Numbered from the stretch's first letter, positions 43,001 to 61,844 are shown. The stretch is 64,000 nt of DNA from Tubulanus polymorphus (GCF_964204645.1 NC_134029.1:18718950-18782949); one strand, 5' to 3'. The notes: generated by a model from the letters alone, not told the origin. Numbers and translations are program-made.

Positions 43001-44008
43001 CTCGGAATTTGGTCGTTTTCACCAAATGGGCATATAATCCAATCAAATTTACAGCACATACCGTATAAAAACGATACAATTTAGTATTCGAGTAATTTCG
43101 AGTAATTCGTCGCAATGATCGCTGTGAAGGACATTATAACGAGAGAACGAAAATCTGTGGCACTCAGATAATCATATAATATGTGCTGTGATGAAAAACT
43201 ACTTCGGTTGCTATCAGTGATTCTTTGATGAATGTAAATAGGCTTACCCCATTATGTCCTGCATCGTCGGGGCTATTATTGATAGTTACGTCCATAAAAT
43301 TTGAAATGCGAATCTCCCATCGTTGATCGATGATGTCGGATTGACGGCAGAATTCGGTACAGGTTTCGATGACAGATACAAGTTTTGTGTGATAGAGTTT
43401 GTTATGTTTAGTAGGGTTTTAACAGTGTAACCCTAGTGGGTCTTAAGAGACGGCCAAGTTAGCAGAGCTTAGTCCATGTATGTGTCTTGACAGCCAACAA
43501 CAGATGTGGTTTCGAACCAGGGACCTCTTGGTTCCCAGTCCTCCACTAAACCATCTGAGTTAATGGCACAGGACTTGTCGTGTGGATCTGTCTGATCCTC
43601 GCAGGTAACCCATCCACCCTTTTGAAAGCCTATCATCCCTAGTGGGGGAGCGATATCTTGTTTTAGTCAGCGGGTGCCGTTTGCTGTCTCGCTTGAGGCC
43701 TCGTTAGCGTGATATAGCCTGCAATTCTCAATGGATTTCCATGAACCTTGGTCTGAGGATTGGGCCAGGTGTAATGTCCACCCCTATTGAAAATGGAGGT
43801 TATCGACTGTCTGATATGGTCATCAGGGCGGCCATATTGAATTTCATGTAAAGGCGATACAGCCAGGGCGAACTTCGGTTTTCGAAGTTATACGACTAGT
43901 GGTTTGAACTAATAACCGAACGCTTTATTTCGGTCGTAACGCCATCTTTCACAAAGTCGGCCATCTTGAAACTAGGTCCAAACTACAGCAACCATGCTCA
44001 ATCATGTG

Positions 44009-44389
44009 AGTAATAGGGATAATAGGCTTTCATACCAAAGGTCGAAGGGTCGAGCTCGTAAAAAAATGAAAATAATAATTTACAGTTGAATTAGTCGCGC
44101 ACACTCCTAATTCAACTGTAAATTATTATTATTTTCATTTTTTTACTCACTCACCCCTTCAACCTTTGATACGAAAGCCTATTATCCCTATTACTCTTAA
44201 AATATTCACATAAATGAATAACATTTAAATCATTGAACTTCTAAAATCAATTTTAATAAAAAATATAGTATTAAAATGGAAGCAAATAAATACTACTGCC
44301 CAACATGTAAGATAAGTATAGATAAATCCCAAAAAGCAAGACACAATAAAACTATAACACATTTAGAGAATAAATTGAAACTAGAATAT
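44009..44389 (+). repeat. Left TIR (outer 187 bp self-complementary)
   Basis: Reverse complement of 60479-60859; one mismatch seen, near the inner edge (44381). Confidence 0.95.
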
Positions 44390-44536
44390 TTACAGTTATA
44401 TTCAGAACAGTTAACAAAAGGAAAGAAATTTATTGAATTATGGAATAATGATCCAAATAATGAACAATACGTTGAGGAATTTATTATCAAGGAATCGAAA
44501 GAACTTATCAAAGCAACGAAGAATGAAAAAGGATGA
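44276..44536 (+). CDS. 86-aa chimeric ORF: pPolB N-terminal zinc finger plus duplicated HNH-ORF tail
   Basis: First 38 aa identical to ORF 60592(-); LQLYSEQLTK..YVEEF.IK matches the end of ORF 44605-45279. Confidence 0.6.
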   Translation: MEANKYYCPTCKISIDKSQKARHNKTITHLENKLKLEYLQLYSEQLTKGKKFIELWNNDPNNEQYVEEFIIKESKELIKATKNEKG

Positions 44537-44604
44537 TGTTGGTCGAAGAAATAGAAGAGGATTATAAATTATTAACCAATTTAGTAAAAAAATACGTATA
44601 ATAA

Positions 44605-45279
44605 ATGGAACCAGAACAACCACAAACTATCAATATTACAAATAACACTGGCGTTATAAACATATATTACAAGAAATGTTCTAAATGTGAATTAGATAAA
44701 TCATTAACAGAATTTAGTAAGCGTAAGATTAGCAAAGATGGTTTTCAATATTGCTGTAAAACTTGTACTAAACTATATACCAAACAATACCGAGAAGATA
44801 ATAGAGAATCTTATAATGATTATATGACAGAATATATGAGAGAAAGATATCAAACAGATCTTAATTTTAGATTGAAACAATGTTTACGGTCTAGATTAAC
44901 ACAATTATTCAACAAAGAAACACATTCAGAAACATTATCTAATTTATTGGGTTGTTCAGATGAATTTCTCAAATCATGGATTATATTTCAATTCGATGAT
45001 AAAATGAATATAGATAATTATGGGGATTATTACCATATTGATCACGTGTTACCAATATCTAAATTTAACATGAATGATGAATACAATAAAAAACTTATTT
45101 GGAATTGGAAAAATTTAAGACCTTTAGAAAAGAAAGAAAATCAAACCAAATCTAATAAACTAGATTTACAGTTATATTCAGAACAGTTAACAAAAGCAAA
45201 GAAATTTATTGATCAATGGAATAATAATCCAAATAATGAACGATACGTTGAGGAATTTGATATCAAGGATCCGAAATGA
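44605..45279 (+). CDS. HNH-type endonuclease with N-terminal Cys4 zinc site
   Basis: CSKC..CKTC; NYGDYYHIDHVLPISKF..WNWKNLRPLEKKENQTKSNK. Confidence 0.8.
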   Translation: MEPEQPQTINITNNTGVINIYYKKCSKCELDKSLTEFSKRKISKDGFQYCCKTCTKLYTKQYREDNRESYNDYMTEYMRERYQTDLNFRLKQCLRSRLTQLFNKETHSETLSNLLGCSDEFLKSWIIFQFDDKMNIDNYGDYYHIDHVLPISKFNMNDEYNKKLIWNWKNLRPLEKKENQTKSNKLDLQLYSEQLTKAKKFIDQWNNNPNNERYVEEFDIKDPK

Positions 45280-45582
45280 CTTATCTGGACAGTTATAACT
45301 ACTGCTCCTAATAGATAAACAAAAGTAGTGAGATATCAAATCCTAATTTAAATAAAAAGTATTTAAAAAACAATAACTTCAACTAGCTATCGAATTCTAT
45401 TATATTTTTAATATTTTCTTTTCAAAAAGAGAATACTTTATATTTTGAATAGATCCGAATAGAAATTCTTTAAATTCAAATAGCTAGTATCAGTAGTCAA
45501 TACTAGAATTCTTTAGCTTTAACTAGCTAGTATCATTTTATAATACTTATAATACTATTCTTATTAAATTTCTCTAATATAA

Positions 45583-46185
45583 ATGTCAAAGAAATCTAAT
45601 AAGAATAGTATTGATATTGAAAAAACATTAGATGATTTAGGTATTAGTGATAATAAGGATACAGTTGTTTCTAATTCTATTCAAGTTAATAACAATATAG
45701 ATTATGAATACTATTTATATTGTAAGCATCATCTTGAATTATTAATTGCTGGCGGGAAATCTAAGGACTTCTTAGGAAAAATAATAACTTTTCAAGAACT
45801 AGACTCTATGAAACCCGATAAAGTAATAAAATATTTTAAGATTTATGAAGAAGCAAGATTAGCTAGAATAAATGATTCTATTTCAGATGGTATTGTCAAA
45901 TGTTATTCAAAATTATGTAACCAGTTAATACCAATTGATGATGAAAATAAATTATATAATGATTTGAAAAATGATTATTTAGTTATGACTGAATTACAAA
46001 AATGGGTTGGTTATGCTTCATTTCAATTAGGATCGGTTATGACATTGATTTCTACTGGAGTTATAACATTTTCGAACATCAAACCTATGGAATATAAATC
46101 AGGTAAGAACGAAACAGATGTACTACAACCAAACGTCGAAACAGAAAATGAATCAGAACAAAAATTAACTAAAATAAATGAGTGA
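45583..46185 (+). CDS. Polinton protein of unknown function (200 aa), hydrophobic C-proximal segment
   Basis: Long ORF in AT-rich DNA with TAAATG start. Confidence 0.7.
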   Translation: MSKKSNKNSIDIEKTLDDLGISDNKDTVVSNSIQVNNNIDYEYYLYCKHHLELLIAGGKSKDFLGKIITFQELDSMKPDKVIKYFKIYEEARLARINDSISDGIVKCYSKLCNQLIPIDDENKLYNDLKNDYLVMTELQKWVGYASFQLGSVMTLISTGVITFSNIKPMEYKSGKNETDVLQPNVETENESEQKLTKINE

Positions 46186-46525
46186 TGGAGTTAAGAAAAA
46201 GGCTAGATCAGAGAAACAAATTAAATGGGCAAGAGAATTAGGTAAAAGATCATCAGAATTAAAAAAAGCTAAGAAAAAGAAATTAACTGATATAAATGAA
46301 TCACCTGGTATTGATTCAAATAATAATCCATCTGATTCTTCTAATGTTGGAAGTAATAATAAATTATATATTACAATTGGGTTAATCACAATTATTATAT
46401 TATCCGGTGTAATATATAAATCAAAATTCAAATCTGATGATAAAGATGATTCCAATGATGATAAACCTATTATACCAGAAAATAAATCAAATGAAAATAA
46501 ATCTAAAATATTATTAATGGATTAA
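46178..46525 (+). CDS. Small basic single-TM protein (115 aa)
   Basis: Lys-rich N-terminus; TM LYITIGLITIIILSGVIY. Confidence 0.7.
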   Translation: MSDGVKKKARSEKQIKWARELGKRSSELKKAKKKKLTDINESPGIDSNNNPSDSSNVGSNNKLYITIGLITIIILSGVIYKSKFKSDDKDDSNDDKPIIPENKSNENKSKILLMD

Positions 46526-46531
46526 AATATA

Positions 46532-47617
46532 ATGAAAAAAGAACAATATTTAAGAGAGTTATATTATAACCCAGAAAGTGAAGTATCATATTCTAACGTT
46601 TCAGAATTATGGAATAAAATTAAATCTGATAATAGTGATATAAAATATGGTGAATTAAAATCATGGTTACAAAATCAACCCACATATCAAATTCATAAAA
46701 AGATGGATAAAAAATATTTAACAAGAAAAGTTATGGTTTCATATATTGACCAACAATGGCAAGCTGATTTAATTGACATGAAAAACTTAGAAGAATACAA
46801 TAAAGGATATTTTTGGATACTAAATGTTATAGACATATTCAGTAGATACGCATGGTCAATTCCAATCAAAAATAAAACTGGAATAGAAGTTACAAATTCT
46901 TTCAAATTAATATTTAAAGAAGTTATTCCAGATAAAATACAATTTGATGAAGGTAAGGAATTTTATAACAAACATTTTAAAAAACTATTAACTGATAACG
47001 ATGTAGAATATTTTTCAACACATTCAGATAAAAAAGCATCTGTTATAGAAAGATTTAATAAAACATTGAAAACTAGAATGTGGAAATATTTTACTGCTAA
47101 TGAAACATATAAATATATCGATGTGTTAGATGATTTAGTTAAAGGTTATAATAATTCTAAACATAGTTCTATAAATATGAAACCTATACAAGCTAGAAAA
47201 GAAGATAATTCAGAAATAGTTTGGAATAATTTATATGGCGCATTTGTTACACACGATTTTGGAGAACCTAAATTTAAAATAGGACAACATGTTAGAATAT
47301 CTAAATATCGAAAAACATTTTATAAAGGTTATACCCCTAATTTTACTGAAGAAATATTTAAAATTAAAAAGATAATATTAACTAAACCATTTGTTTATAA
47401 ACTAGAAGATCTAAAAGATGAAGAAATATTAGGTTATTTTTATGAACAAGAATTATCATTAGTACCAAATCCAGATGAAATAGAATACAAAATAGAAAAA
47501 GTATTGAAAACAAAAACTCTTAAAGGAAAAAAGTATTCTTTGGTGAAATATAAAGGATATGATGATAAATTTAATGAATGGATTTTATCTAGTAAAATTA
47601 AAAGAATAAATGAATAA
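46532..47617 (+). CDS. Retroviral-type (rve) DDE integrase with C-terminal chromodomain
   Basis: WQADLIDM, VIDIFSRYAW, IQFDEGKEF, SVIERFNKTLK, YNNSKHSSI; YKIEKVL..LVKYKGYDDKFNEWI. Confidence 0.95.
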   Translation: MKKEQYLRELYYNPESEVSYSNVSELWNKIKSDNSDIKYGELKSWLQNQPTYQIHKKMDKKYLTRKVMVSYIDQQWQADLIDMKNLEEYNKGYFWILNVIDIFSRYAWSIPIKNKTGIEVTNSFKLIFKEVIPDKIQFDEGKEFYNKHFKKLLTDNDVEYFSTHSDKKASVIERFNKTLKTRMWKYFTANETYKYIDVLDDLVKGYNNSKHSSINMKPIQARKEDNSEIVWNNLYGAFVTHDFGEPKFKIGQHVRISKYRKTFYKGYTPNFTEEIFKIKKIILTKPFVYKLEDLKDEEILGYFYEQELSLVPNPDEIEYKIEKVLKTKTLKGKKYSLVKYKGYDDKFNEWILSSKIKRINE

Positions 47618-48221
47618 AGATTTATTTATATTTGAACCACATAATATGTTAGTTACTGGAGTTACAAATTGTGGTAAAACACACTTCATATTATATTTAT
47701 TAGAAACTATTTATAAGAATCATTTTGATAATATAATATTATTCTGTCCTACTTATGAAATGAATGAAACGTATAATAGAGATATAGTTAAGATAAAAAA
47801 GTTTATTATATTAGATCCTAAAACAGTAAAAGAAAATTTAGATAATTGTATTAAAATTGCATTAGATATTTATAAAGGATCAAATACATTATTCATTATA
47901 GATGATTGCGCAAATTTACATGATTCTAAAATTAGAGAAAGTGAGTTATGTTATTTAGCTTTCTCTGGTAGACATTTTGGGATAACAACATGGGTTTTAA
48001 ATCAGAAATATAATTCAATTGTTAAAGACTTTAGAGAGAATATAAGATTTCTAGTTTTATTTTATAATAAAGATAAAAAATCTATGCAACAATCATTGGA
48101 AGAAAATCAAATTATACCTACTGAATTACATGATGAATATATGAATAAATTAAAGAATAATAAAGGTTCCAAATTACTTATGAGATTACAATTTCCATAT
48201 GAATATAAATTTATAAAATAA
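47610..48221 (+). CDS. A32-like (FtsK-HerA) genome packaging ATPase
   Basis: Walker A GVTNCGKT, Walker B FIIDD, SGRH, WVLNQ, FRENI. Confidence 0.92.
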   Translation: MNKDLFIFEPHNMLVTGVTNCGKTHFILYLLETIYKNHFDNIILFCPTYEMNETYNRDIVKIKKFIILDPKTVKENLDNCIKIALDIYKGSNTLFIIDDCANLHDSKIRESELCYLAFSGRHFGITTWVLNQKYNSIVKDFRENIRFLVLFYNKDKKSMQQSLEENQIIPTELHDEYMNKLKNNKGSKLLMRLQFPYEYKFIK

Positions 48222-48237
48222 AATCCTAATTCAAAAT

Positions 48238-48759
48238 ATTATAGAATTCACTGTATACTAATGGATGAGTGGATGAATTGGATGAATTGGATGAATTGGA
48301 AGAGTGGATGAATGGAAGAGTGTAATAATATATAATTTACATATGTTTTTTATTTTTAAAACAGTAAGAGTTTGATTTGAAGATGTCATATAATAATAAA
48401 TATATTTTTATAAAATAATAAAATGACAGATAATAAATGTCATATAATAATAAATATATTTTTATAAAATGATAAATAATAAAATGATAAATAATAAAAT
48501 GATAAATAATAAATATATTTTTATAAAATAATAAATAATAAAATGATAAATAATAAATGTCATATAATAATAAATATATATTGTGTTAAATTTAATAAAG
48601 AATAAAAATATTATATTTATACTCATACTATTCTTCCAATTTATGTGTTAAAAAGTAAAATATATATATTATTACACTCTTCCACTCTTCCACTCTTCCA
48701 ATTCTTCCAACTCATCCAACTCATCCATTCATCCATCAATATACAGTGAATTCTATAAT
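48238..48759. repeat. Central inverted repeat enclosing AT-rich tandem repeats
   Basis: ATTATAGAATTCACTGTATA / TATACAGTGAATTCTATAAT, arrays of TGGAWGART 9-mers on both arms, internal ATAAAATGATAAATA repeats. Confidence 0.85.
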
Positions 48760-48763
48760 CTTT

Positions 48764-49828
48764 TTAATTTTCATTTTCATATTTTTCTTTAAGCTTATTG
48801 TATTCTAAATATATATCCCTTTGCATTTTCATTGGTATAATTCCTGAACGATTCCCGAGTTTATATTTCCTAAATGTTTCTCTTGAAAATATTTTTGGAA
48901 TATAATTTTCGATTTCAGTTTTAGATGGATGTTTATTTAAAAATTCTCTAAAATCATCATATTTAAGTTCAAATAAGTTCATTGCATAAGTAACATTTGG
49001 TTTAAAGTTATCTAACTTTTTCAATATGGTAACTATATCATTACTCAAGAAATAATCTATAAATGTTTTTCTATACCACCGATAATCTAATATATTCTTA
49101 TTATTAAATTTTGGATTTATAACTGTTGGATCTTCTATTACATTATCTGTACCAATATGTTTAATTGAGTATTTATGATTCAATTGTTTATCATATATTA
49201 CATATTCTTTACATTTTTCACACCAAGATTTAAATACTTTTATTGCATGGGCTGAATCATTTCCACTTTTTGTTTTTAATTTATAATGTTTTGCCCAATT
49301 AGCCTTTGTTATACATTCATTACAGAAAGCACAATAATTCTGATCCTCTTTACATTTATCTTTATATATATTGGCATATGTTTTTACTAATTGTAAAATA
49401 TGTTCATCTTTTTTGATGTGTAATAAATAATCATTATAATTATCAAAATCTTCTTCACAATACATACATCTGATGTTATCTTTTGGTTGAACATTTGATT
49501 TTTCTATTTTTGTTTCAATCTTATGTTCTATTTTAGGTTCAATATTATCGTCATTCGATGTAGAAGGTATAACATTATCTTCTATTTTAGGTTCAATATT
49601 ATCTTCTATTTTTATATCAATATTATCTTTTATTTTAGGTTCAATATTATCTTCTATTTTTATATCAATATTATTATTACGTTTAATTAAATATTCTTTG
49701 TATTGATTTAATTCATTTAATAAAAATGTTCCAATATATTCATTTATTCTTTTATAAGGTATTACATAATACAAATCATCATTGATTTCTTTATCAGCTT
49801 TGATTCTTTCATATACTTTACCTTCCAT
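48764..49828 (-). CDS. Multi zinc-finger protein with (IKIEDNIEPK)-type repeats (354 aa)
   Basis: CMYC..H..H, CAFC..H..H, CEKC..H..H. Confidence 0.75.
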   Translation of the reverse strand: MEGKVYERIKADKEINDDLYYVIPYKRINEYIGTFLLNELNQYKEYLIKRNNNIDIKIEDNIEPKIKDNIDIKIEDNIEPKIEDNVIPSTSNDDNIEPKIEHKIETKIEKSNVQPKDNIRCMYCEEDFDNYNDYLLHIKKDEHILQLVKTYANIYKDKCKEDQNYCAFCNECITKANWAKHYKLKTKSGNDSAHAIKVFKSWCEKCKEYVIYDKQLNHKYSIKHIGTDNVIEDPTVINPKFNNKNILDYRWYRKTFIDYFLSNDIVTILKKLDNFKPNVTYAMNLFELKYDDFREFLNKHPSKTEIENYIPKIFSRETFRKYKLGNRSGIIPMKMQRDIYLEYNKLKEKYENEN

Positions 49829-49860
49829 TTATTATATACATTTTTATTAAAGTTAAAATT

Positions 49861-51108
49861 CTAATACATAACACTATCTAATTGTGAATTTACAATATTT
49901 AATTGCGCGTCAGATATAATATAAATGTGCATTTTAAAATTTTTGATTCCCTTTTTCTTTGTCATGAATAATTGTATTCCATCTTTAGTGTTCTGTAGTT
50001 TTTTCCCAGAACCATGTAATAAGTTATCTTCAGTTGTTCTAAAATCTAACCATAATGCATATTTATTACCGGTATAATAATCAATTTGATTAATGTTACA
50101 ATTTTCAAATGATTTTACTTTTTCATTCATAAAATGTTTTTTAATTTCTACCCATTGATCTATCATTCTCATTCCTTGACAAAATATTTTATTCGCTATA
50201 CCTTCAATAGTTATTTCTACTTTTGTTATTTCAGGATTATAATAATTGTCAACATTTATTGCGCCATTAGTATACGTTCCAATAGTAAAAAATATTAATA
50301 TGCCTTTAATAGATCTTCTAGGAAAGTTAATATTCTCATTTATTATTTCATCATTTGCATTAATAGTTACAGTTTTAAATTTATCAATATAATCATATAA
50401 TAATGAAAACCCTTGATTGTATTGAGTTTGAATTATACTTGAAATATTTTCATCAGTTACTGTATCATATTCTAAACATATATTCGATAATTTATAACTC
50501 ATATCTTTATTAACGCTAGATAATACAATTTCATTTACAGGAGCAAATGTTATCTCAAATATAATATCTTCTTGAATTGCGTATTTATATAAAGGTGCAT
50601 TATTATTTATCAATTCAAAGTCTAATGGAATTTTATATTTGCTTCCATATATACTTTTTATCAATTTATCTACATCATTTGTTAATATTGCGCTATTAGC
50701 TTCTGATCTTAATTTATTTTGGTTTTCTGATTGGATGCCTTGAAATATCATATTATTTCTATTTTCTTTAGTTAACCATAAATCTTTATAATGCATAAAT
50801 AAATTATAATCATCTAATGAGAAAACTGTTTCTGGACCAATCTTTATTGTTAACTTTTTAATCAAATATCTCCCAACATTATCAACGACATAATTATTAT
50901 TATTACCGATTACTTTTATATCAGCTGATAAATAAATACTATTTGGAACATAAAAAGTATTTTGTGTTAATCTAGGAATTCTAACGTATAAAGTTTCATC
51001 GGGATTAATATTTGAAGGGTTATGAGTAATTATATGATGTGATCTTTCTGCTTTAATAGCGTTAGATATTCTAGAAATCTTCGAAGGACTTATATAAATC
51101 CCACTCAT
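49861..51108 (-). CDS. Major capsid protein, predicted double jelly-roll (415 aa)
   Basis: Size, beta-rich pattern and motifs HNPSNINPDETLYVRIP, NVGRYLIKKLTIKIG, YKIPLDF, YKLSNICLEYD, ALWLDFRT..LHGSG recalled from invertebrate Polinton MCPs. Confidence 0.75.
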   Translation of the reverse strand: MSGIYISPSKISRISNAIKAERSHHIITHNPSNINPDETLYVRIPRLTQNTFYVPNSIYLSADIKVIGNNNNYVVDNVGRYLIKKLTIKIGPETVFSLDDYNLFMHYKDLWLTKENRNNMIFQGIQSENQNKLRSEANSAILTNDVDKLIKSIYGSKYKIPLDFELINNNAPLYKYAIQEDIIFEITFAPVNEIVLSSVNKDMSYKLSNICLEYDTVTDENISSIIQTQYNQGFSLLYDYIDKFKTVTINANDEIINENINFPRRSIKGILIFFTIGTYTNGAINVDNYYNPEITKVEITIEGIANKIFCQGMRMIDQWVEIKKHFMNEKVKSFENCNINQIDYYTGNKYALWLDFRTTEDNLLHGSGKKLQNTKDGIQLFMTKKKGIKNFKMHIYIISDAQLNIVNSQLDSVMY

Positions 51109-51129
51109 TTATTTAACAAAAAAAATTAA

Positions 51130-52587
51130 TTATTTATTTTTTATCATGTTTACTAAACCAAAAATAATAGCACTTACAACCGTAATTAAAAATAAAATAA
51201 TATGTTCAGCAGCAAAGTTAATAATGTTTCCTGCAGATTTCAATATAAAACCAACAATTGAAGCAATAACTCCTGGCAATGCTGCAGCAGATTTTTTAGA
51301 TAGTTCCCATAAATATTTTGCTAATTTCTTTAAACCATCTTTAACTTTATCTTGTATAGAATTATTGCCTGGAGGTTTATCTGGTTTATTTGGAGTGGGA
51401 GTAGGAGTAGATTTCAAAGCATTTGATATAGCTAAACCTATTGTTGTAAATACCATAGTTACAGCTGTTAGAATTGAAAGAATTGTTATTCCTTCAAACT
51501 TAAATAATAATTTTATTCTATCTTTTAGTGATATGTCAGAATTTGGTTTTAGTATTAACTCTTTAACAACAACTTTTAATCTATTAATACAATAATCATA
51601 TGATTTTAATAATAATTTCATTTTTTCTTTCTGAAATTCTATGTTATATTTTAAATCATCAATTTCTTTTTCTAAATATGCATTTCTTTTTTTAAATTCA
51701 ATTTCTTCAATAACTTTAAATTCTCTATCTAATTTTAATTGTTCTAATTCTTTTCTGGTGTCAAATAATTTATTTTCTAAAGGTTTAATTTTATTATATC
51801 TAATATGTTTTTCGCGAGCAATTTTATCGGCTTCATTTCGTATACCTATTATTTCTCTAATTGTTTTTTTAGAAAACATACTTAAAGCTTCTATTTCTTG
51901 ATCTGTTGCATCAAGTAATCCATTCGGTAAAAGTTTTTCAGTTTGAACTTCAGTGTTTGATTTAAGTTTACTAGTTTTGGAAGTTATATTCTGTTCAGAA
52001 GTTGTTTCTATTTCCGATTTCTTTTTGATTATTTTAAATAAGTCATTAATTCTTTGTTTAAATACTATTATATAATTATTTATTTCTTCTTGTGTTACAT
52101 CAGTTATAACATCATTATTGATTTTCTTAATTCTATATGGTTCTAACTTAAGCAAAGTTGATTTCGCTAATATTTTAGTTAGTATTGTCGTTTGATTAGT
52201 GATATCAATATAATAATCAAAGGACAAATGATAATAATATTCACCATCTAAAAACTTTAAATCTTGTGCTAAAAGTCCGGCGCCTTCGGCATTTATATTA
52301 TATTCAGATTTTTCAAAATCATATTGAATCTTACTTAAAAATCTAATATTTTCTAAATTTTTTATTTCTAAATCTGGGTCTAAATTTTCAGGATTTATTC
52401 TCGATCTAGTTCTTCTATCAAATTCATCTGTTGATGGGACTTTATAACCTCTATCTGCTAAATTAGAATTATATGCTGATTCATTATTATCATTAAAACT
52501 TGTTTCACTTAAATCAGGTGGTTGTTCTTCAGTTATGCTGGGTTTATCAAAAGTATCCATTCCAATATTTTCTACACCTTCTGCCAT
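51130..52587 (-). CDS. Coiled-coil protein with several C-terminal hydrophobic helices (485 aa)
   Basis: Heptad region ~aa 250-345; hydrophobic segments ITILSILTAVTMVFTTIGLAI, AAALPGVIASIVGFIL, IILFLITVVSAIIFGLV. Confidence 0.8.
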   Translation of the reverse strand: MAEGVENIGMDTFDKPSITEEQPPDLSETSFNDNNESAYNSNLADRGYKVPSTDEFDRRTRSRINPENLDPDLEIKNLENIRFLSKIQYDFEKSEYNINAEGAGLLAQDLKFLDGEYYYHLSFDYYIDITNQTTILTKILAKSTLLKLEPYRIKKINNDVITDVTQEEINNYIIVFKQRINDLFKIIKKKSEIETTSEQNITSKTSKLKSNTEVQTEKLLPNGLLDATDQEIEALSMFSKKTIREIIGIRNEADKIAREKHIRYNKIKPLENKLFDTRKELEQLKLDREFKVIEEIEFKKRNAYLEKEIDDLKYNIEFQKEKMKLLLKSYDYCINRLKVVVKELILKPNSDISLKDRIKLLFKFEGITILSILTAVTMVFTTIGLAISNALKSTPTPTPNKPDKPPGNNSIQDKVKDGLKKLAKYLWELSKKSAAALPGVIASIVGFILKSAGNIINFAAEHIILFLITVVSAIIFGLVNMIKNK

Positions 52588-52603
52588 TTACATAATAAAA
52601 AAA

Positions 52604-53905
52604 TTAAAATTTAAAATATAATATTCCTCCGATTACAATTCCTATACAAGTTATAGCTAATTTAGTATTTTCATGGGATTTATTATCATCATTTAGTTTA
52701 ATTATATCATGTTGAATTTTATCAGTTTTAATATTTTCTGATGTATTGTAATCTTTTATTTTAGAATCATTAACCAATTTAATATTATTAGTTTTAGTTT
52801 CTGTTGATTGAATATGTTTTTTATTTTTTTCACCTTCCATTAATTTTGGAGCAGTAATAATCTTTTTATTTATATCATTTAATCCAAATGAATTATTTAT
52901 TGTTGCAGTTTTAATTAGATTATTATAACCAATTATATTTCCCATCTTTAATACTAAATCATTAGAAATAATTAATAGATTAGGGCCTATACAATAATTA
53001 AGTCTTACATGAGATTTATCTAAATAATTTTGATATCTAATAATGTTTTCTGGAATCGATCTATTTTTATCATTATGAATTGAATCTTCAAATAAAACTT
53101 TAAATTGTTTTTGTGTATCGAATGATGTATTCAAATTTCCAATTATCGGTGATCTTGTTTCAACTTGTGATCCTAAAATACATATCAAATAAGTTCTAAT
53201 AGATTGATTTATTCTTTGTATTCCAGCTTTAGTAAAACCTTCACTATTTTCTAAAATGAAATTAACCCAACCATTATTATTATCAATTTTATAATTATGA
53301 TAAGCTCCAATTCTATGCATATAATCAATTCTTTTTATTTCATACTGTTCACCAACACCTTGCAATTTACCATGCGCTCTAAAATCGGAATTAATATTTA
53401 TATTAAATTCATTACATATTTTATAAAACTTGGATATATTAATATTATTATCTAATTCTTTAAAATATTTAGACCCGGGTAAAGGACATTCTAATTCATT
53501 TAATATTATTCTGATTTGAAAATATGTGTGAAATCTAAATATTGTGTGAATTAATTTTAAATCAGAATACTTCAAATTTTTATCTAAGTTATTTAAATGA
53601 TCATTCCAACTTATTCCACATCCTGTTGTTGCACAATAAATAGCAAAATCTAATTGGTTCTGCCAATACTTCATATTAGATTTTACTTTATATTTATGAT
53701 ATTCATCTCGAGTAAAAGTAACTTCATATGTATTAAATATATTTTCCATTTTAGAAATAAAAAACTGTGATTCATTAACATAAATTTCTAAATTAGTTAA
53801 TGAATTTAAAACTATATTTTTATATGTAATATTTTTCTTAAAATCTATTGCCGGAATATTATATTTAATTGATTTATTATATTGGAAAGCTTTTGGAAAC
53901 CCCAT
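52604..53905 (-). CDS. Polinton protein of unknown function with C-terminal TM anchor (433 aa)
   Basis: WQNQLDFAIYCATTGCG, FRFHTYFQIR; terminal LAITCIGIVIGGILYF. Confidence 0.8.
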   Translation of the reverse strand: MGFPKAFQYNKSIKYNIPAIDFKKNITYKNIVLNSLTNLEIYVNESQFFISKMENIFNTYEVTFTRDEYHKYKVKSNMKYWQNQLDFAIYCATTGCGISWNDHLNNLDKNLKYSDLKLIHTIFRFHTYFQIRIILNELECPLPGSKYFKELDNNINISKFYKICNEFNININSDFRAHGKLQGVGEQYEIKRIDYMHRIGAYHNYKIDNNNGWVNFILENSEGFTKAGIQRINQSIRTYLICILGSQVETRSPIIGNLNTSFDTQKQFKVLFEDSIHNDKNRSIPENIIRYQNYLDKSHVRLNYCIGPNLLIISNDLVLKMGNIIGYNNLIKTATINNSFGLNDINKKIITAPKLMEGEKNKKHIQSTETKTNNIKLVNDSKIKDYNTSENIKTDKIQHDIIKLNDDNKSHENTKLAITCIGIVIGGILYFKF

Positions 53906-53921
53906 TTATATAATTAAAAAA

Positions 53922-54356
53922 TTAATAATTAACTAATTCTTTTAATAATTTATCTTGTTCTTCAACTGTTATATGACCATTTAAACTTATTATATAATCT
54001 AGTGTGTTCTTTAATTTATTTATTTCTTTTATATTAGATTTTATTTTTTCTTTATTACTTTTTATATTTAATTTTGAACTTATACCAGTTAAAACACTTG
54101 AACTTAATCCTAACACACCAATTGATATAGCTAAAGGTGTTAATGGACTGAATATTGCTAGAAATGTTATTACAGAACTAATTGTAACCGAACCACTTAT
54201 AATCAAATAATATATAATTTTACTTTTTAAATATTTTTTCTTTTTTATCTTTAAGTCACTTTCAAATTCTAATATTTGTTTTTCTAAATATGTTTTTAAT
54301 TTAGTTTTATTTATATCATGAGGAATAATATCAATACTATCAACTTTATCTTCCAT
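53922..54356 (-). CDS. Two-TM small protein (144 aa)
   Basis: Hydrophobic hairpin ~aa 48-95 flanked by charged helices. Confidence 0.75.
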   Translation of the reverse strand: MEDKVDSIDIIPHDINKTKLKTYLEKQILEFESDLKIKKKKYLKSKIIYYLIISGSVTISSVITFLAIFSPLTPLAISIGVLGLSSSVLTGISSKLNIKSNKEKIKSNIKEINKLKNTLDYIISLNGHITVEEQDKLLKELVNY

Positions 54357-54375
54357 TTATTTAGAATAAAAATTA

Positions 54376-54798
54376 CTAATTAGTAAATTTATAAGCAACA
54401 AATATAACAATAACAGTTCCACCTAAAATCCATATTATTTCATATTTCTGTTGTTCTTTACTTGGGGTATAATAATCTGATAATTTAGGTTTGTATAGAT
54501 GTAATTTTTCTTTATTGGTTACCGCGTTATATAAACTCATAGCATCATCAACTGATTGAAAATCTCTATGTGAAATCTTCTGATCATATAATTCTTTATT
54601 GATGTAATCCATATAGTTTTGTCTCTTTTCTCTATATTCTTCTGCAGCTTTATTGTATTTCTCTAACGCTAAGTTATGTCTTCTTTGTTCTCCTAATGAA
54701 CTATTTTTATCAATATGTTTAAATAAATAACCGCCACCAGTAAATGCTAAAGCGTTAACAATTGCTGATCCTATAATAGTTATAATTGCAGAAGCCAT
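54376..54798 (-). CDS. Membrane protein with N- and C-terminal hydrophobic helices (140 aa)
   Basis: MASAIITIIGSAIVNALAFTGGGYLF; IIWILGGTVIVIFVAY. Confidence 0.78.
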   Translation of the reverse strand: MASAIITIIGSAIVNALAFTGGGYLFKHIDKNSSLGEQRRHNLALEKYNKAAEEYREKRQNYMDYINKELYDQKISHRDFQSVDDAMSLYNAVTNKEKLHLYKPKLSDYYTPSKEQQKYEIIWILGGTVIVIFVAYKFTN

Positions 54799-54823
54799 TT
54801 ATTTAGCAAAAAAAATTATGCAT

Positions 54824-55045
54824 TTATATGGGAGGAATATATTTTTGTTTTTCCAAATAATCAATAGTTAAATTAGATAAAGTAACTGCTAATGTTAACT
54901 TTAAAATATCATTGATATCAAATCTATCAACATTAACACTTCCCATTTTGAATACTTTTTTTAATACCATTGAATAACCAACAGTTCCAACTGATAGTAA
55001 TGCGCCATTATATAATCCAGTTATTATCCACTTATTATCACTCAT
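54824..55045 (-). CDS. Small hydrophobic protein (73 aa)
   Basis: T7-N6-TAAATG start and tight packing with neighbours. Confidence 0.65.
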   Translation of the reverse strand: MSDNKWIITGLYNGALLSVGTVGYSMVLKKVFKMGSVNVDRFDINDILKLTLAVTLSNLTIDYLEKQKYIPPI

Positions 55046-55393
55046 TTATTTATCAAAAAAATTACTATATTCAAAATATTTAGTTATCTTAGTGATTATT
55101 AATTCAACATTTATTTTATTACTAGTTTTATGATTATCATATATTTTGGATAATATGTTTTTAATATCATCGATGATAAAATCTTCATCTAATTCATAAA
55201 ATCTTAAAGATTCGGTAATCTTTTCTATATTAAAAGTTTCTTTATCAATTGTTGTTTCATACTCAAATGTTGTTTCATTAGAAAATGCAATATTTTTGAT
55301 ATGTGTTATTACATCATAAATGTTAAATTTCATTTCTTTCTCACGTTTAAAATCAAACCCAAAACATATACTCGGTCCAACAGTTATATTCAT
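55046..55393 (-). CDS. Hypothetical protein (115 aa)
   Basis: TAAATG start; its TAA stop abuts the next ATG. Confidence 0.65.
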   Translation of the reverse strand: MNITVGPSICFGFDFKREKEMKFNIYDVITHIKNIAFSNETTFEYETTIDKETFNIEKITESLRFYELDEDFIIDDIKNILSKIYDNHKTSNKINVELIITKITKYFEYSNFFDK

Positions 55394-55409
55394 TTATATA
55401 GGTGAAAAA

Positions 55410-56168
55410 TTACTCTTTACATCTTATAACTAATTCATAAATTACAGGAAAGTTATTCAAATCAATTAAGTATCCATTATGATTTCTTATTTCTAATTTA
55501 AAATTATTAAATTGAGGAATACAAGGTTTGAAATCACATTCAGCTAAATTATAATTTATTTGCGTTCCAAATTGTTTAACATTTTTTAATGGTAAAATAT
55601 TTAATATACTAGAATTACATGTTGTATCTTTAGTTGCTTCGAATGTTTTTGTTGGGTCAATTAAATTGCAATAAATATAAAAATGTGTAAAAGGTATTAT
55701 ATTTGAATTACCGTCTACGTTTCCTGTAACAGTTTGTGGTTTAATTCCTAACAGTTTAGCTAAAGGTTTCCTTACCATAAATGCATGTTTGTTTTCATCA
55801 TCTAACTTTATTTTAATTTTATTAGAACTATCACTTTTTATAAATCTAATTGAAAATTTATCTTCACTTTTAAGTTTTAATCGTGCTCTCCGATTAATTT
55901 CTTGTGCTAATGTATCTAAATTATATAATCCTGGTTTTAAAATTAGTTGAAACCATTTATTTATATTTCTAATATGAATTAAAAAGTCTCTATGATCAAA
56001 ACTTTTATCCGATATATTATGAAAAGAATTACATAAACTTATATTTACTAATTTTAAATCAACACAATTCTTGAATTCTCTATCTAATTGTACTAATAAA
56101 TTATGTGATTTATAATTTGTAAGTTTTCTAGAATCAACAAATATTCTGTATTCTTTTAATTCTACCAT
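55410..56168 (-). CDS. Minor capsid (penton) protein, single jelly-roll
   Basis: IFVDS, LKPGLYN, FYIYCNLID, ILNILPL, FKLEIRNHNGYLIDLNNFPVIYELVIR. Confidence 0.8.
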   Translation of the reverse strand: MVELKEYRIFVDSRKLTNYKSHNLLVQLDREFKNCVDLKLVNISLCNSFHNISDKSFDHRDFLIHIRNINKWFQLILKPGLYNLDTLAQEINRRARLKLKSEDKFSIRFIKSDSSNKIKIKLDDENKHAFMVRKPLAKLLGIKPQTVTGNVDGNSNIIPFTHFYIYCNLIDPTKTFEATKDTTCNSSILNILPLKNVKQFGTQINYNLAECDFKPCIPQFNNFKLEIRNHNGYLIDLNNFPVIYELVIRCKE

Positions 56169-56185
56169 TTATTTTACATATTTTC

Positions 56186-56527
56186 TTATTCGAAATCTAT
56201 TTCATGGTGCCCTTTTTCATTCTTACCTTTGTATACGAAATAGAAATCTCCAGAACATAATTCTTCTAGATCTTCACTTGATAATCTATGAAATCTATCT
56301 GGTAAATAAGTTCTGAATTTATATGTATTTCCTTTTAATCCTTCATATTCTAAATGAATTACTAATTTATCTCCATATTTATTAGTAATTGTTTCAATGT
56401 TAGTAATTAAATATTTCTTGTGAATTGTTAATTCTGTTAACTTTTTAAATTTATAATCTACAGATTTGACGCTTGAAGTATCTTTAATTCTATCTAAGAA
56501 TTCATTGTGTACTTGTTTACTCTCCAT
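56186..56527 (-). CDS. Small protein next to pPolB, possible OB-fold ssDNA-binding protein (113 aa)
   Basis: FKKLTEL..KY.I..TNKYG..L..YLPDRF pattern; function is inference. Confidence 0.5.
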   Translation of the reverse strand: MESKQVHNEFLDRIKDTSSVKSVDYKFKKLTELTIHKKYLITNIETITNKYGDKLVIHLEYEGLKGNTYKFRTYLPDRFHRLSSEDLEELCSGDFYFVYKGKNEKGHHEIDFE

Positions 56528-56555
56528 TTATTATACAAATTTTTATTGAAATTGA

Positions 56556-59500
56556 TTAACACGTTAGAATCCTTTTCATGATTTCATTTTCTTTTGTTTC
56601 TTCTCTTTTGAATTTTATATATTCATCTAAATTGCAACCATAGGCGACTGTGTGGATTCCATCATCTAAAATATATCTTTTATCATCAAATGGGTTTAGA
56701 CTTATCTTTTCAATTTCTTCAATATACATTTCATGATCTTCAGATCTTAAACATTTCATTTTATGTTTTCTAACTTCTTCATTAAATATACAATTGATGT
56801 AATCTTTGAAATGAATATTCTTTTCTACTACACTTTTAGTAATTCCTTTTAACTTTTTAGCTTCATGTTCTTTAGTTTTATATGAATACATTTTAGATCT
56901 AATACCAATAAACTCTATCATTTCTTCACCACCTAATTCATCCTTAAACTTCCCTGGAACTTTTTTATTATCATTGCTAAACAATTCATGATTTTTTGGA
57001 TAATTACTAAAATCAAAATGGTGTTTTAATGTTTTTAAATCATCTGTTATGTTATCAGTTTTTATCTTTAATATATAACTGTCAGTATCAAAGTATAGAA
57101 TTTCTATGTGTTTTTCTCCAAAATGGGGTTGTAATATGTTATAATAAAATTGATACATTAATAACTTTGAAATTTCTAGAACTGATGCACCAACATAAAT
57201 AGGTTTATTGAACTTCATAGAAGTTCTTTTCATTTTAACTGCTGCTAAATTTTCATCAAATATTCTGTTACCTATAAACTTAGGATATGATTGTAAATGC
57301 CTAATTCTTTTACCATTACTAACTAACTCAATATCATTTCTATTTCTAATATTTTCACAAGTCTTACCATAGAATGCATTATTCATTAGTTTGAAGAAAT
57401 CTTTTTCAAAATCAGTTTTAGATTTAGTTCTCTGTGTAGTATTAAAATCTATATATTTTTCTAACCATTTAGATTGACTGAATGAAATATATCTATGTAC
57501 TTTTTTTAGAATCATTCCTTGATTCAAATAAAACTTCAACATTCTATAATGCACAACGTAATTATATTTATCTTCTTGAGTTACCATTAACTTTTCAGTA
57601 TGAATATGATTATCGGGTTTAATTCTTTTTTGATAATTTGATAATTCTTCATGTTTAACAGTTTTATGTTCGGGACAATATGCTAGATTTCTAGATTTGA
57701 ATTTAATATTTTCAGGGTATTCTAAATCTACAACAAAGAAGTAACCAGTATCTGAATCATCTGCAATATCTAGAATTCTTTTCTTCCAATCAAATTTATC
57801 ATTATTTTCATTCTGTAAAACTTCAGTTATTTCAAACATCCCATAAGGTTGTGGTTCCATCATTGCCCAACCATAAAGATTATTTGCATCTATGTATAAT
57901 AATTTATATCCAGGATTATCATTTACATTGAAATATCTATCACCCAATACACCTGAAACACCTCCTCTTATAGATTTTTCAAATAATAGTAATTGATCTA
58001 TATTTGTTAACAAATCCATTTTTATATCTGTAAATTTTAATCCACAATCCCATGTTAATCCTGGTGATGAATAACAATGACAAGGATCAATGTTAAAATA
58101 TTTTAGGTTTACATCTCTAAACCTTTCGAATATATCGGTTAATAATAATACATCTGATTTTAAATATAAATCTACTAATTGACCATGATTTTCTATTTTG
58201 AAATGATTCCAAATATTCAATGTTCTATTATAAACTTCATCTTTAACATATTCATTTTTTAATTCATCATAGAATTGTTCTTTTAATAATTCAGTTATAT
58301 TAAAATCATTATGATTTTTATAGAAAGAATATGGAATCGCTCCTTTATATCTCATTAATTTAAAATCATCATAATTTGGGTAATATTCTTTTAATATCTT
58401 TAATTCATCATCAACTAATGATTTTGATAGATTATCTAATGAACTTGCTAGAAATCTATAAGAATCTATAAATCTTAGACAACCAAATTGGAATGATATA
58501 TAATTCTCAGATGTTTTAGCTAACATTCTAAATTTATAAGTTGGTATTTTATCTTTTGATTTATTTGAATTTAATATTTCTATTTCATTATTAATTTCTT
58601 CTATTTTATGACATAACTGTTTGATAAATAAATGCGCGTCATATCCTGATAGATTATGAAATATAATGGGGACAAAATTTACTTTTTTGGCTTGCAAATT
58701 ACAATTCTCATGTGCAGCGCCTCTAAACTTTCCATTCAAATGATCATGGTCTCTTACTTTTTTATCTTTATAATTAAATATCTTTTCACAATAATAACAT
58801 TTATCTGCAAACTCAAATTCTTCTTTATCTTCTTCTGTCATTATAATTTCTTTATTTGTATTCAATAATTTACTAAATCTTATTTCATATTCAATTAATA
58901 AGTCACAAAAATAATAACATTTTCATTTCTATACTGATAATATTCACTTTCAATTAGTTCTGGATAATCAGATTTAATATATAACCCGAAAGCAGCAGCT
59001 GATTGATGAATCTTTTTAATAGTATTTGTTTTTGGTGGGTCTTCTGAATAATCACTTTCATTAGAATTTAATTTCTTTCTTTTATAATATATATCTTTTC
59101 TATCTTTATCTGTTAATTCTTTATTTAATGATTCAAAATCTCCATATATTACAAATGGTACTTTATTTTTGTAATCATATTTTTTGAATTCTAATATTTT
59201 ATCCTTTTCATTTGGTAAAACTAATTTACAATAATCATGATTATCACATAGTTGTTTATGATTTAATAATGTACTTTCATTACTAAATCTATGTAAACAT
59301 TTTCTACATAGATATATTTTATTATGGTGATCACTTTCTGTTCTAAAAAATAAATCTATTTGTTTAATCCACATATAATGATTCTCATAATATAATATAT
59401 CTATAACATCGTTTGAATCATAATCTTTTGATAGGTATAAAGGTTCTAATGTATAATGTTTAATATTATTTCCTTTTGTATTTGGTAATTTAATTAAATC

Positions 59501-60592
59501 AAATACATTTATTTTAAGATTATTATCTCTTTCTATTTTGGGGATGTTTTTAATTCTAACAGGATACTTATCTATCTTATAATTATTTTCAAATGGTTTA
59601 TAATGAGTTAATCTAAAACTATGTGTAATATCTTCTGTTGGATGTAAACAACTTATTATAGCCCATAGAAAACATTTATCATCTTCATTTTGTATATTTA
59701 TTACAGCATTAGTTTTAAATGGTAGTTTAATATAACTTGTTCCATTTATACTATCATCTTTATAATATGATAAATTATTTTCATCAATTGGTTTTGATTT
59801 AGTTAACTTATTATATTTTGTGTTATAAACATGTAAAGTCATAAATATTATCTCATCAAATATTAAACCAGATCCTTCAAAATATTTTTCTTCTATTTTA
59901 GTTTTTATTTCATTATAACATTTTTCTAATTTATCATCTAAATGTTGTTTAGATATAATATGTTGTGAATGAGAATTTATATTATATATTGGTTTATCTT
60001 CAGATTTTATAAACTTTACTTTAGAAGATATACTAATTTTAGGATATTCAACATCTGTAATTATTTTTATTATTTCTTTCATATTTTCTAAATGTTTTTT
60101 ATTTTCTTCTAATGTTTTACCTTTATGAAATTTAAACTCGATAGCTGCTGGACCAATATCACTTTTAAATGCTTCGGTTATCTCTATATCTTTTTTATTA
60201 TCTAATGAATTAATATAATTTCTTACATCTTCCATGTATGGTCTTTTATTGTTTAATTTATTTTTTATTCTTTTAATTGTCTTCTGTTTCTTATCGTTAT
60301 CATTATCAAAATAATCTTCACCTAAAATATCATTATTCTTATTTCTAATATGACTTATAGATTTTAAATGTTCTTTATAATATCTTTTATCACTGAATGA
60401 TTGATTACATGTATCACATTTGTATGTTTCTTTTTCATTCTTTAATTCTTCTAATTTAGTTTCTAATATATCATCTTTATATTCTAATTTCAATTTATTC
60501 TCTAAATGTGTTATAGTTTTATTGTGTCTTGCTTTTTGGGATTTATCTATACTTATCTTACATGTTGGGCAGTAGTATTTATTTGCTTCCAT
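56556..60592 (-). CDS. Protein-primed family B DNA polymerase, one 1-nt frameshift at ~58907-58911 (~1345 aa if repaired)
   Basis: Zinc fingers; INIQNEDDKCFLWAI..ENHYMWI (vOTU-like); ExoI YGDFES; EndoVII-like VRDHDHLNGKFRGAAHENCN; ExoII FHNLSGYD; YLKSDV; YIDANNLYGWAM; KLMNNAFYGK; YFDTDS. Confidence 0.95.
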
Positions 60593-60859
60593 TTTAATAC
60601 TATATTTTTTATTAAAATTGATTTTAGAAGTTCAATGATTTAAATGTTATTCATTTATGTGAATATTTTAAGAGTAATAGGGATAATAGGCTTTCGTATC
60701 AAAGGTTGAAGGGGTGAGTGAGTAAAAAAATGAAAATAATAATAATTTACAGTTGAATTAGGAGTGTGCGCGACTAATTCAACTGTAAATTATTATTTTC
60801 ATTTTTTTACGAGCTCGACCCTTCGACCTTTGGTATGAAAGCCTATTATCCCTATTACT
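60479..60859 (-). repeat. Right TIR (outer 187 bp self-complementary)
   Basis: Reverse complement of 44009-44389. Confidence 0.95.
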
Positions 60860-61844
60860 CATGTGGTCGACAATTTCTGGACCGGTTTCACTTTAGTTCG
60901 ACTATAGTCGACTAACTCCGAAAACCAAAGTACGCCCTGCAATCTGGAATGGTGTATCTTGAAAATCAATATGGTTCTTTCCTACATGATCCGACAACAT
61001 GCCGTGCAATTTAAAATTATTCCATCGACTGGTTCAGCCAGAATCTTGTATACAAGGATGTTAGTTGAACAGCTATTTAGAGAACAACGTCATCTTCAAC
61101 GTTGTACAGTAGGATTTTCTACCCTTTTGCCAGGTCAACTCCTGGTTATCCCAAAAATACCACATCAAATCTCATGTCATCATAGTGACCATCTAAACAA
61201 TAGCCTCTTTTAAATTTCATGCAATTGGTTGTAAATGTATAAGTTCTGACTTTGTGTGGTGCGGTTGCCATTTTGGAACAGATGTTTGTCGTCGCTGGAT
61301 TTGTACTATCGGCTTTTAGACAATAGGGTTGTGGCGGCCGTGTGTAACGTAGCAAATAAGGAAGTATAGATGTTCTGTAGCGCGGGGGGGTGGGGGGATG
61401 TCGGCCTATCACACGCGTATAGTTGTTCATCTTTTCCCGTATAACAATCCCGATGCTGATTGCGCGCTTCTCATTTTTAGCATATAGATTATTGTAAATG
61501 TCGCCTCTCAAGGGGAATCTATAACAATACGATGTAAGCTGATTACGAATACATCGCGCACAGCTGTAGTAAGCAGTATATTGAATATGGATCGAGAATT
61601 ATATATAATGTATGATATTAGTGTACCCTGATGGTCAAATATCTGAAATAAAACTGGAAATTGCCGGGGCTTGATCCAGGGCCATAAAGAGAGAAGTACA
61701 ATATCTACAGGGTCCCTACAACTTCTTGATTGACTTTTTACCCAAAAATGGCAGTTATTTGCAAAAAGGGCACTTTTCAAAAATAATGAATACATCTGTG
61801 ATTTGTAAGCCTATTTGGGCTGGGCATCCACTTTTTATTATATG

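Follow-up and report, generated by a model that had tools for sequence, protein, structure and literature searches.

The DNA described here is a window of 64,000 nucleotides (nt), the whole stretch that was analyzed, from the palaeonemertean ribbon worm Tubulanus polymorphus (GCF_964204645.1 NC_134029.1:18718950-18782949). Positions 44009-60859 of the window are occupied by a 16,851-base-pair (bp) element of the Maverick/Polinton group (Polintoviricetes), most of whose genes begin at a TAAATG motif that resembles poxvirus promoters. The element has a GC content of 0.23 as opposed to 0.40 in the flanks, is bounded by a perfect 6-bp target-site duplication (TSD; CATGTG on both sides) and ends in terminal inverted repeats (TIRs) that are 99.7% identical, with 1 mismatch over 381 bp. 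These features had been claimed in an earlier annotation that a model made from the same DNA (the sequence-only reading) and were confirmed, and the recent integration that it proposed is likely, as TIR identity and TSD are both consistent with it. Each TIR folds over its outermost 187 nt into a single hairpin (-65.4 kcal/mol, z -18.7) that none of 200 shuffles matched. Eighteen ATG-initiated open reading frames (ORFs) of at least 60 amino acids (aa), a set that leaves out three antisense ORFs nested within larger genes, make up 90% of the element and are arranged in two convergent blocks, 6 on the plus and 12 on the minus strand, with spacers of 0-32 bp within the blocks and of 16-32 bp between most genes. 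The 17 packed intronless ORFs reported before are obtained if the two polymerase halves are merged, "intronless" being read from the continuity of the ORFs. A large inverted repeat at the point where the blocks converge likely acts as a terminator or insulator, and palindromes were found at the equivalent place in the relatives L003, L004 and L005.

Besides the TIRs and TSD, the element carries the hallmark genes of Mavericks, namely a protein-primed family B DNA polymerase (pPolB), a retroviral-type (rve) integrase, a double-jelly-roll major capsid protein (MCP), a penton and an A32-type ATPase (Table 1). The "full" set for replication, integration, packaging and capsid that had been announced was not confirmed, since pPolB is split in this copy and no protease (adenain or adenovirus-type cysteine) was matched by Pfam in the 18 ORFs or in the 37 ORFs of relatives that were scanned. 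As had been stated, no RNA polymerase subunit is found among the Pfam matches of the 18 ORFs. Mavericks do not normally encode an RNA polymerase.

Sixteen distinct gene starts were counted in the element, taking the two TIR copies once and excluding the ATG of the 761-aa polymerase ORF, which is internal and no true gene start. TAAATG was found at 14 of these, TAAAATG and ATAATG at one each, while the 654 other ATGs of the element include only 48 that are part of a TAAATG; the excess over the local TAA frequency is highly significant (binomial P ~5e-13). Upstream of the motif a T occupies position -12 in 15 of the 16 starts, and two classes can be told apart by the composition of positions -18 to -12. 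A row of seven genes, the major capsid gene among them, has 5-6 T in this stretch (T-run class), whereas six starts, including those of the polymerase, HNH and penton genes, have 5-6 A (A-run class); the remaining three are mixed. Vaccinia late promoters combine TAAATG with upstream T residues, and vaccinia intermediate promoters combine TAAA with an upstream A-rich stretch followed by T (PMC11980589, PMC5294985). The TAAATG motif is also in use at an entomopoxvirus late gene (PMC3061580). The start pattern of the element agrees, as a match of motifs, with the published vaccinia late-class consensus (PMC11980589). On the coding strands TTTTTNT is somewhat rarer than expected (7 against 13.5 +/- 2.9, with 5 of 300 shuffles as low).

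The motif was followed through the best 80 of 183 loci with related capsids, plus the window, and the counts are limited to homologous starts that are in register with the window's genes. In the clade of the element (17 sequences) TAAATG was present at 56 of 65 starts, or 42 of 48 without the window, as compared with 1 of 136 starts in 58 other loci. Six more distant loci, which were grouped after the motif had been seen, gave 9 of 10; pooled with the rest they bring the count outside the clade to 10 of 146. TAAATG or TAAAT-ATG starts occur in the distant capsid relatives L037, L038, L039, L041, L069 and L074, at 33-36% identity. The clade has SH-aLRT (approximate likelihood ratio) support of 98-99 in quick MCP trees, two members (L028 and L056) having been assigned by capsid identity rather than by the tree. 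A quick tree of 30 rows calls for 3 changes for the TAAATG capsid lineages, which may have one origin or several. AT content does not account for the motif: clade loci with a GC content of at least 0.30 have TAAATG at 15 of 17 starts, and 13 outgroup loci with a GC content of at most 0.38 have it at 0 of 25 (Fisher P 5e-15 for the clade against these outgroup loci), though NAAATG is found at 14 of those 25. The poxvirus-like promoter motifs of the sequence-only reading are lineage-specific, independent of AT content and of two classes.

A parallel count was obtained from 22 viral contigs with related polymerases. In 21 of these TAAATG precedes 11 of 216 ORFs, whereas in the remaining one, L091 (IMGVR_UViG_3300020002_000020), it stands at all 7 long ORFs, which are spread over the two strands. 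L091 is a Maverick-like 9-kb contig of 38% GC, with a polymerase 36% identical to that of the element and no capsid match in the portion of the contig examined; it is possibly an independent lineage with the pox-type code. Its integrase is extended at the N-terminus by a further domain, protease-like by eye and without a Pfam match.

With a probability of roughly 55%, we suggest that the element belongs to a Maverick lineage that is transcribed by the RNA polymerase and the intermediate and late factors of a co-infecting poxvirus-type virus, and not by the host nucleus. That it would be a satellite is suggested because the poxvirus post-replicative apparatus is the simplest machine known for this code and because virophages have late promoters in common with their helpers (PMC6428243). 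In such a lifecycle the integrase would place the linear genome into host DNA, creating the 6-bp duplication, and the provirus would stay largely silent in the nucleus, since starts that follow the preceding gene so closely leave no space for ordinary 5' leaders. Once element DNA is present in a pox-type cytoplasmic factory, the A-run starts (polymerase, HNH, penton and a possible single-strand DNA-binding protein) may fire first and the T-run starts (major capsid and six neighbors) later, with messages beginning at TAAAT. Replication by the polymerase would begin at the genome ends, where the terminal hairpins offer self-priming, the central inverted repeat may stop convergent messages, and the ATPase would package the genome into the icosahedral capsid of the element itself. 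Vaccinia factories transcribe incoming naked DNA that bears such promoters. The dependence on pox-type transcription proposed in the sequence-only reading is better supported than before by the lineage-specific, two-class motif.

Several observations weigh against a pox-type helper. An integrated provirus in the nucleus and a factory in the cytoplasm are physically apart, and the element would have to leave the nucleus by some route. With its polymerase gene split, this copy would require help in trans, provided that the break is no sequencing error. Moreover, the offsets of the T- and A-runs fit vaccinia only roughly, the two classes are not cleanly split by function (the penton is A-run), two genes change class between the window and L001, and the integrase start has no TAAA. 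TAAAT-like motifs have been described near some ranavirus genes (PMC5294985). No clear poxvirus-derived gene was found in the element or among 18 proteins from clade loci and L069, and the only poxvirus-named transcription-factor matches among the scanned relatives are weak VLTF3-like ones (E 3.6e-05 and 6.4e-04) at L014:6543-7049 and L030:5082-5576, both of which are free of the motif.

Since a bipartite signal whose two parts keep a constant distance, with T at -12 and TAAA at -3, would suit any initiation complex, it is conceivable, albeit unlikely, that the motif is a promoter for another machine, either that of a large DNA virus other than a poxvirus (similar to asfarviruses, egoviruses or iridoviruses) or the RNA polymerase II of the host together with a factor of the element such as the 354-aa zinc-finger protein. 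Integration in the nucleus speaks for this, as do the bipartite late promoters of asfarviruses and the use of TAAAT by some ranaviruses (PMC5294985), and basal relatives of poxviruses have been reported in marine sediment (10.1101/2024.03.23.586382). However, it is for poxviruses that the exact overlap of TAAATG with the start codon and the division into T-run and A-run have been described (PMC11980589), the literature on TAAATG late promoters concerns nearly always poxviruses or poxvirus vectors, judging by title and abstract start among the matches listed, and Pfam shows the element to have no gene resembling TBP or TFIIB. It was also considered that TAAATG might be a translation signal, in which an in-frame stop and an A-rich start context separate genes on polycistronic messages running from both ends toward the central hairpin. 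The two convergent same-strand blocks, the short spacers and the central inverted repeat would favor this arrangement; we regard it as improbable, as the TAA is the stop of the upstream gene in just 2 of 56 cases, which also disposes of stop-start coupling as the source of the motif, AT-rich outgroup Mavericks often have NAAATG and never TAAATG, and the motif is carried by divergently oriented genes in L091, L037 and L074. We know of no start-codon context with a near-invariant T at -12 and runs at -18 to -12.

The idea of the sequence-only reading that the provirus is retained as an inducible antiviral defense, as was proposed for mavirus in Cafeteria, draws on analogy (PMC6428243); near-identical TIRs imply a young insertion and not long retention, and the polymerase gene is split, so that we find such a role very doubtful here. 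Least credible of all is an ordinary AT-rich Maverick with TAAATG by base composition. Although the element is 77% AT and has a standard Maverick gene set, AT bias as the source of the motif is contradicted by the test against local composition, by the outgroup and GC-richer clade loci and by the 21 other polymerase-related contigs.

By family the element is a Maverick/Polinton and not a virophage, contrary to what had been proposed, as its MCP is about 10% identical to that of mavirus, ranking below iridovirus and chlorovirus capsids, and 30-44% identical to those of Maverick-like loci outside the clade. It resembles other Mavericks/Polintons ("adintoviruses") in size, TIRs and 6-bp TSD, in having pPolB, an rve integrase and an A32 ATPase, in its double-jelly-roll capsid and its penton, and in its animal host; it differs in the 187-nt terminal hairpins, the lack of a detected protease and the lineage-wide two-class TAAATG starts, the last of these being absent from most Maverick relatives examined. 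The adenovirus-type cysteine protease is present in most members of Maverick group 1. Two capsid relatives, L020 and L049, have a helicase instead of pPolB, a described trait of Maverick group 2 (10.64898/2026.06.19.733378), and with this swap the sequences are consistent with the element being most like group 2. Mavirus and other virophages (Virophaviricetes) share rve integration and pPolB, and the borrowing of late transcription from a large virus that is proposed here (PMC6428243), but all of them have a cysteine protease and their motif is of mimivirus type, whereas the element has no protease detected by Pfam, a pox-type motif and an animal host.

Closest in the proposed lifestyle are the polinton-like elements found in entomopoxvirus occlusion bodies (PMC11296320). 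These polinton-like viruses (AHEV_PLV1/2 and CBEV_PLV1) are likewise small double-jelly-roll viruses and proposed poxvirus parasites; unlike the element they measure some 12 kb, encode a protease and lack an rve integrase, and their link to poxviruses is co-sequencing from occlusion bodies, whereas that of the integrated element in its nemertean host is the promoter code. The terms "promoter", "transcription" and "TAAAT" do not appear in the main text of PMC11296320. Vaccinia intermediate and late promoters have the same TAAAT(G) over the start codon and the same T-rich and A-rich upstream classes (PMC11980589); in the element this code sits, with approximate offsets and as known from sequence alone, on a 17-kb integrating element without transcription genes. 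The hairpin termini, which the sequence-only reading had listed as a poxvirus trait, are real but not pox-specific. Palindromes within TIRs beside the TSD, with proposed hairpin priming, were also described in endogenous virophages and polinton-like viruses of the protist Halocafeteria, where they measure 52 nt in the figured subtype and mostly accompany replication genes other than pPolB, in contrast to 187 nt and pPolB in our animal element (10.64898/2026.07.28.741278). No poxvirus concatemer-resolution-like motif was found in the TIR, the terminal 18-mer of the element had no match in the viral contig collection, and blastn of the termini found none among related loci. On these grounds the hairpins were rejected as a pox signature.

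As polinton-like parasites of entomopoxviruses are already in print (PMC11296320), what appears to be new is the TAAATG promoter code in Polintons, for which the sequence signal is strong; no report of TAAATG starts or pox-type promoters in Polintons was found in the open-access literature, by title and abstract start. According to a 2026 preprint (10.64898/2026.06.19.733378), no Maverick virions have been observed. For animal Mavericks, a lineage-specific pox-type code would make helper dependence cheap to test by reporter. More tentatively, several animal Maverick lineages may be poxvirus-dependent satellites with a complete intermediate and late promoter code that can be read from sequence and that would mark hosts whose pox-like viruses have yet to be discovered, in this case a marine ribbon worm; we rate this somewhat below an even chance. 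The code could also serve as a sequence marker for pox-like viruses in invertebrate groups from which none is known.

The features of the element are collected in Table 1. A frame change near 58,900 breaks the polymerase gene into two ORFs, one of 565 and one of 761 aa. The first of these is 62% identical to residues 1-554 of P0162, the closest relative, in which a continuous polymerase of 1319 aa spans both ORFs, and P0282 is continuous as well (1336 aa); because close relatives are continuous, the split is more likely a lesion or a sequencing error. A programmed or conserved split was considered, as P0163 (733 aa) starts at about the same place, and rejected, as its 90% cluster includes a continuous member of 1336 aa. 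The segment 44378-44509 resembles 45157-45285 at 89%, and this internal duplication of 132 bp together with the terminal repeat makes the 86-aa ORF a by-product. Homologues of the HNH-like protein are present in 5 clade loci. The capsid model has a predicted local distance difference score (pLDDT) of 85 and matches the SGIV and PBCV-1 capsids in Foldseek (E ~1e-15). The penton model (pLDDT 93) aligns with the mavirus penton over 237 residues (Z 12.3, root-mean-square deviation 7.2), and the mavirus minor capsid is matched at E 1.2e-11. The 485-aa protein was considered as GasderminX-like; a sequence search of the PDB gave it no match at E < 0.05, and the gasdermin identity was not borne out. 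The 113-aa protein is possibly a phi29-like single-strand DNA-binding protein, which we offer as a lead only.

Table 1. Features of the Maverick/Polinton element and its target site, in window positions
Feature	Position	Strand	Remarks
Left TSD, CATGTG	44003..44008	.	
Left TIR, 381 bp	44009..44389	+	Contains polymerase-gene promoter and first codons (shared sequence)
Terminal imperfect palindrome, 187-nt hairpin	44009..44195	+	Mirror copy 60673-60859
86-aa chimeric ORF	44276..44536	+	Start TAAAATG; TIR-borne polymerase start fused to duplicated end of HNH gene
HNH endonuclease-like protein, 224 aa	44605..45279	+	A-run TAAATG; weak Pfam HNH_4, E 0.044
Conserved Maverick protein, 200 aa, no assigned function	45583..46185	+	TAAATG
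115-aa protein, hydrophobic segment	46178..46525	+	TAAATG within end of upstream gene
Retroviral-type (rve) integrase with chromodomain, 361 aa	46532..47617	+	PF00665 E 9.8e-09 (above cut-off), PF00385 E 8.1e-05; sole start without TAAA
A32-type packaging ATPase, 203 aa	47610..48221	+	PF04665 E 3e-11; TAAATG within end of integrase gene
Large inverted repeat, 115-nt arms at 89%, flanking short tandem repeats	48220..48777	.	Convergence point of gene blocks
Zinc-finger protein, 354 aa, no assigned function	48764..49828	-	A-run TAAATG; zinc-finger look-alikes all score <0.9
Double-jelly-roll major capsid protein, 415 aa	49861..51108	-	T-run TAAATG; predicted fold
Conserved virion-module protein, 485 aa, coiled coil and hydrophobic C-terminus	51130..52587	-	T-run TAAATG
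Conserved protein, 433 aa, hydrophobic C-terminal end, no assigned function	52604..53905	-	T-run TAAATG
144-aa protein, hydrophobic segments	53922..54356	-	T-run TAAATG
Conserved small protein, 140 aa	54376..54798	-	T-run TAAATG
Conserved small protein, 73 aa	54824..55045	-	T-run TAAATG, its TAA being the stop of the upstream gene
115-aa protein, no assigned function	55046..55393	-	T-run TAAATG
Single-jelly-roll penton (minor capsid protein), 252 aa	55410..56168	-	A-run TAAATG; predicted fold
113-aa protein	56186..56527	-	A-run TAAATG; closest cluster with a name is PF17427, on 44% of members at score 0.85
Protein-primed family B DNA polymerase, C-terminal ORF, 761 aa	56556..58841	-	PF03175 E 3.3e-15; catalytic motifs present
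Polymerase N-terminal ORF, 565 aa	58895..60592	-	Start TAAAATG within right TIR
Right TIR, 381 bp	60479..60859	-	
Right TSD, CATGTG	60860..60865	.	

Among the relatives, deoxynucleoside kinase genes (PF01712, E ~1e-31) were found in the clade members L001 (10343-10981) and L007 (2898-3377), and the family is also marked on the polymerase relative P0171; such kinases could fit replication away from the nuclear nucleotide supply. As a pointer to the helper the L001 kinase was uninformative, leading to a single contig (L103, 37% identity) that is giant-virus-like by ORF reading. No relatives of the capsid were found in the viral contigs, genome contigs or phage records searched. Contigs of less than 17 kb hold the top 57 capsid matches and, of the top 13 polymerase matches, the 12 for which a contig is recorded, and many more distant matches sit on contigs of up to megabases; the short contigs of the close relatives could be free virus or collapsed repeats. 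The P0046/P0136 cluster holds capsid relatives at 54% identity that public databases assign, as hypothetical proteins on contigs of 0.5-1.6 kb, to Bartonella sp., and these records are probably misassigned contaminants.

The CpG observed/expected ratio is 0.57 in the element (44009-60859) and 0.95 in the flanks. In the host DNA, an exon at about 8,540-8,720 on the plus strand codes for part of eIF2B epsilon and matches Tubulanus polymorphus at 98% identity over 59 aa, with no match in the rest of the 9 candidates compared, so that the host would be this species or a close relation; another exon codes, at 36264-36650, on the same strand, for a FAM174-like membrane protein (PF06679). A GC-rich retroelement at 13311-17609 has overlapping ORFs with RNase H and reverse-transcriptase matches and an ORF that looks recombinase-like by eye, and is presumably a DIRS element.

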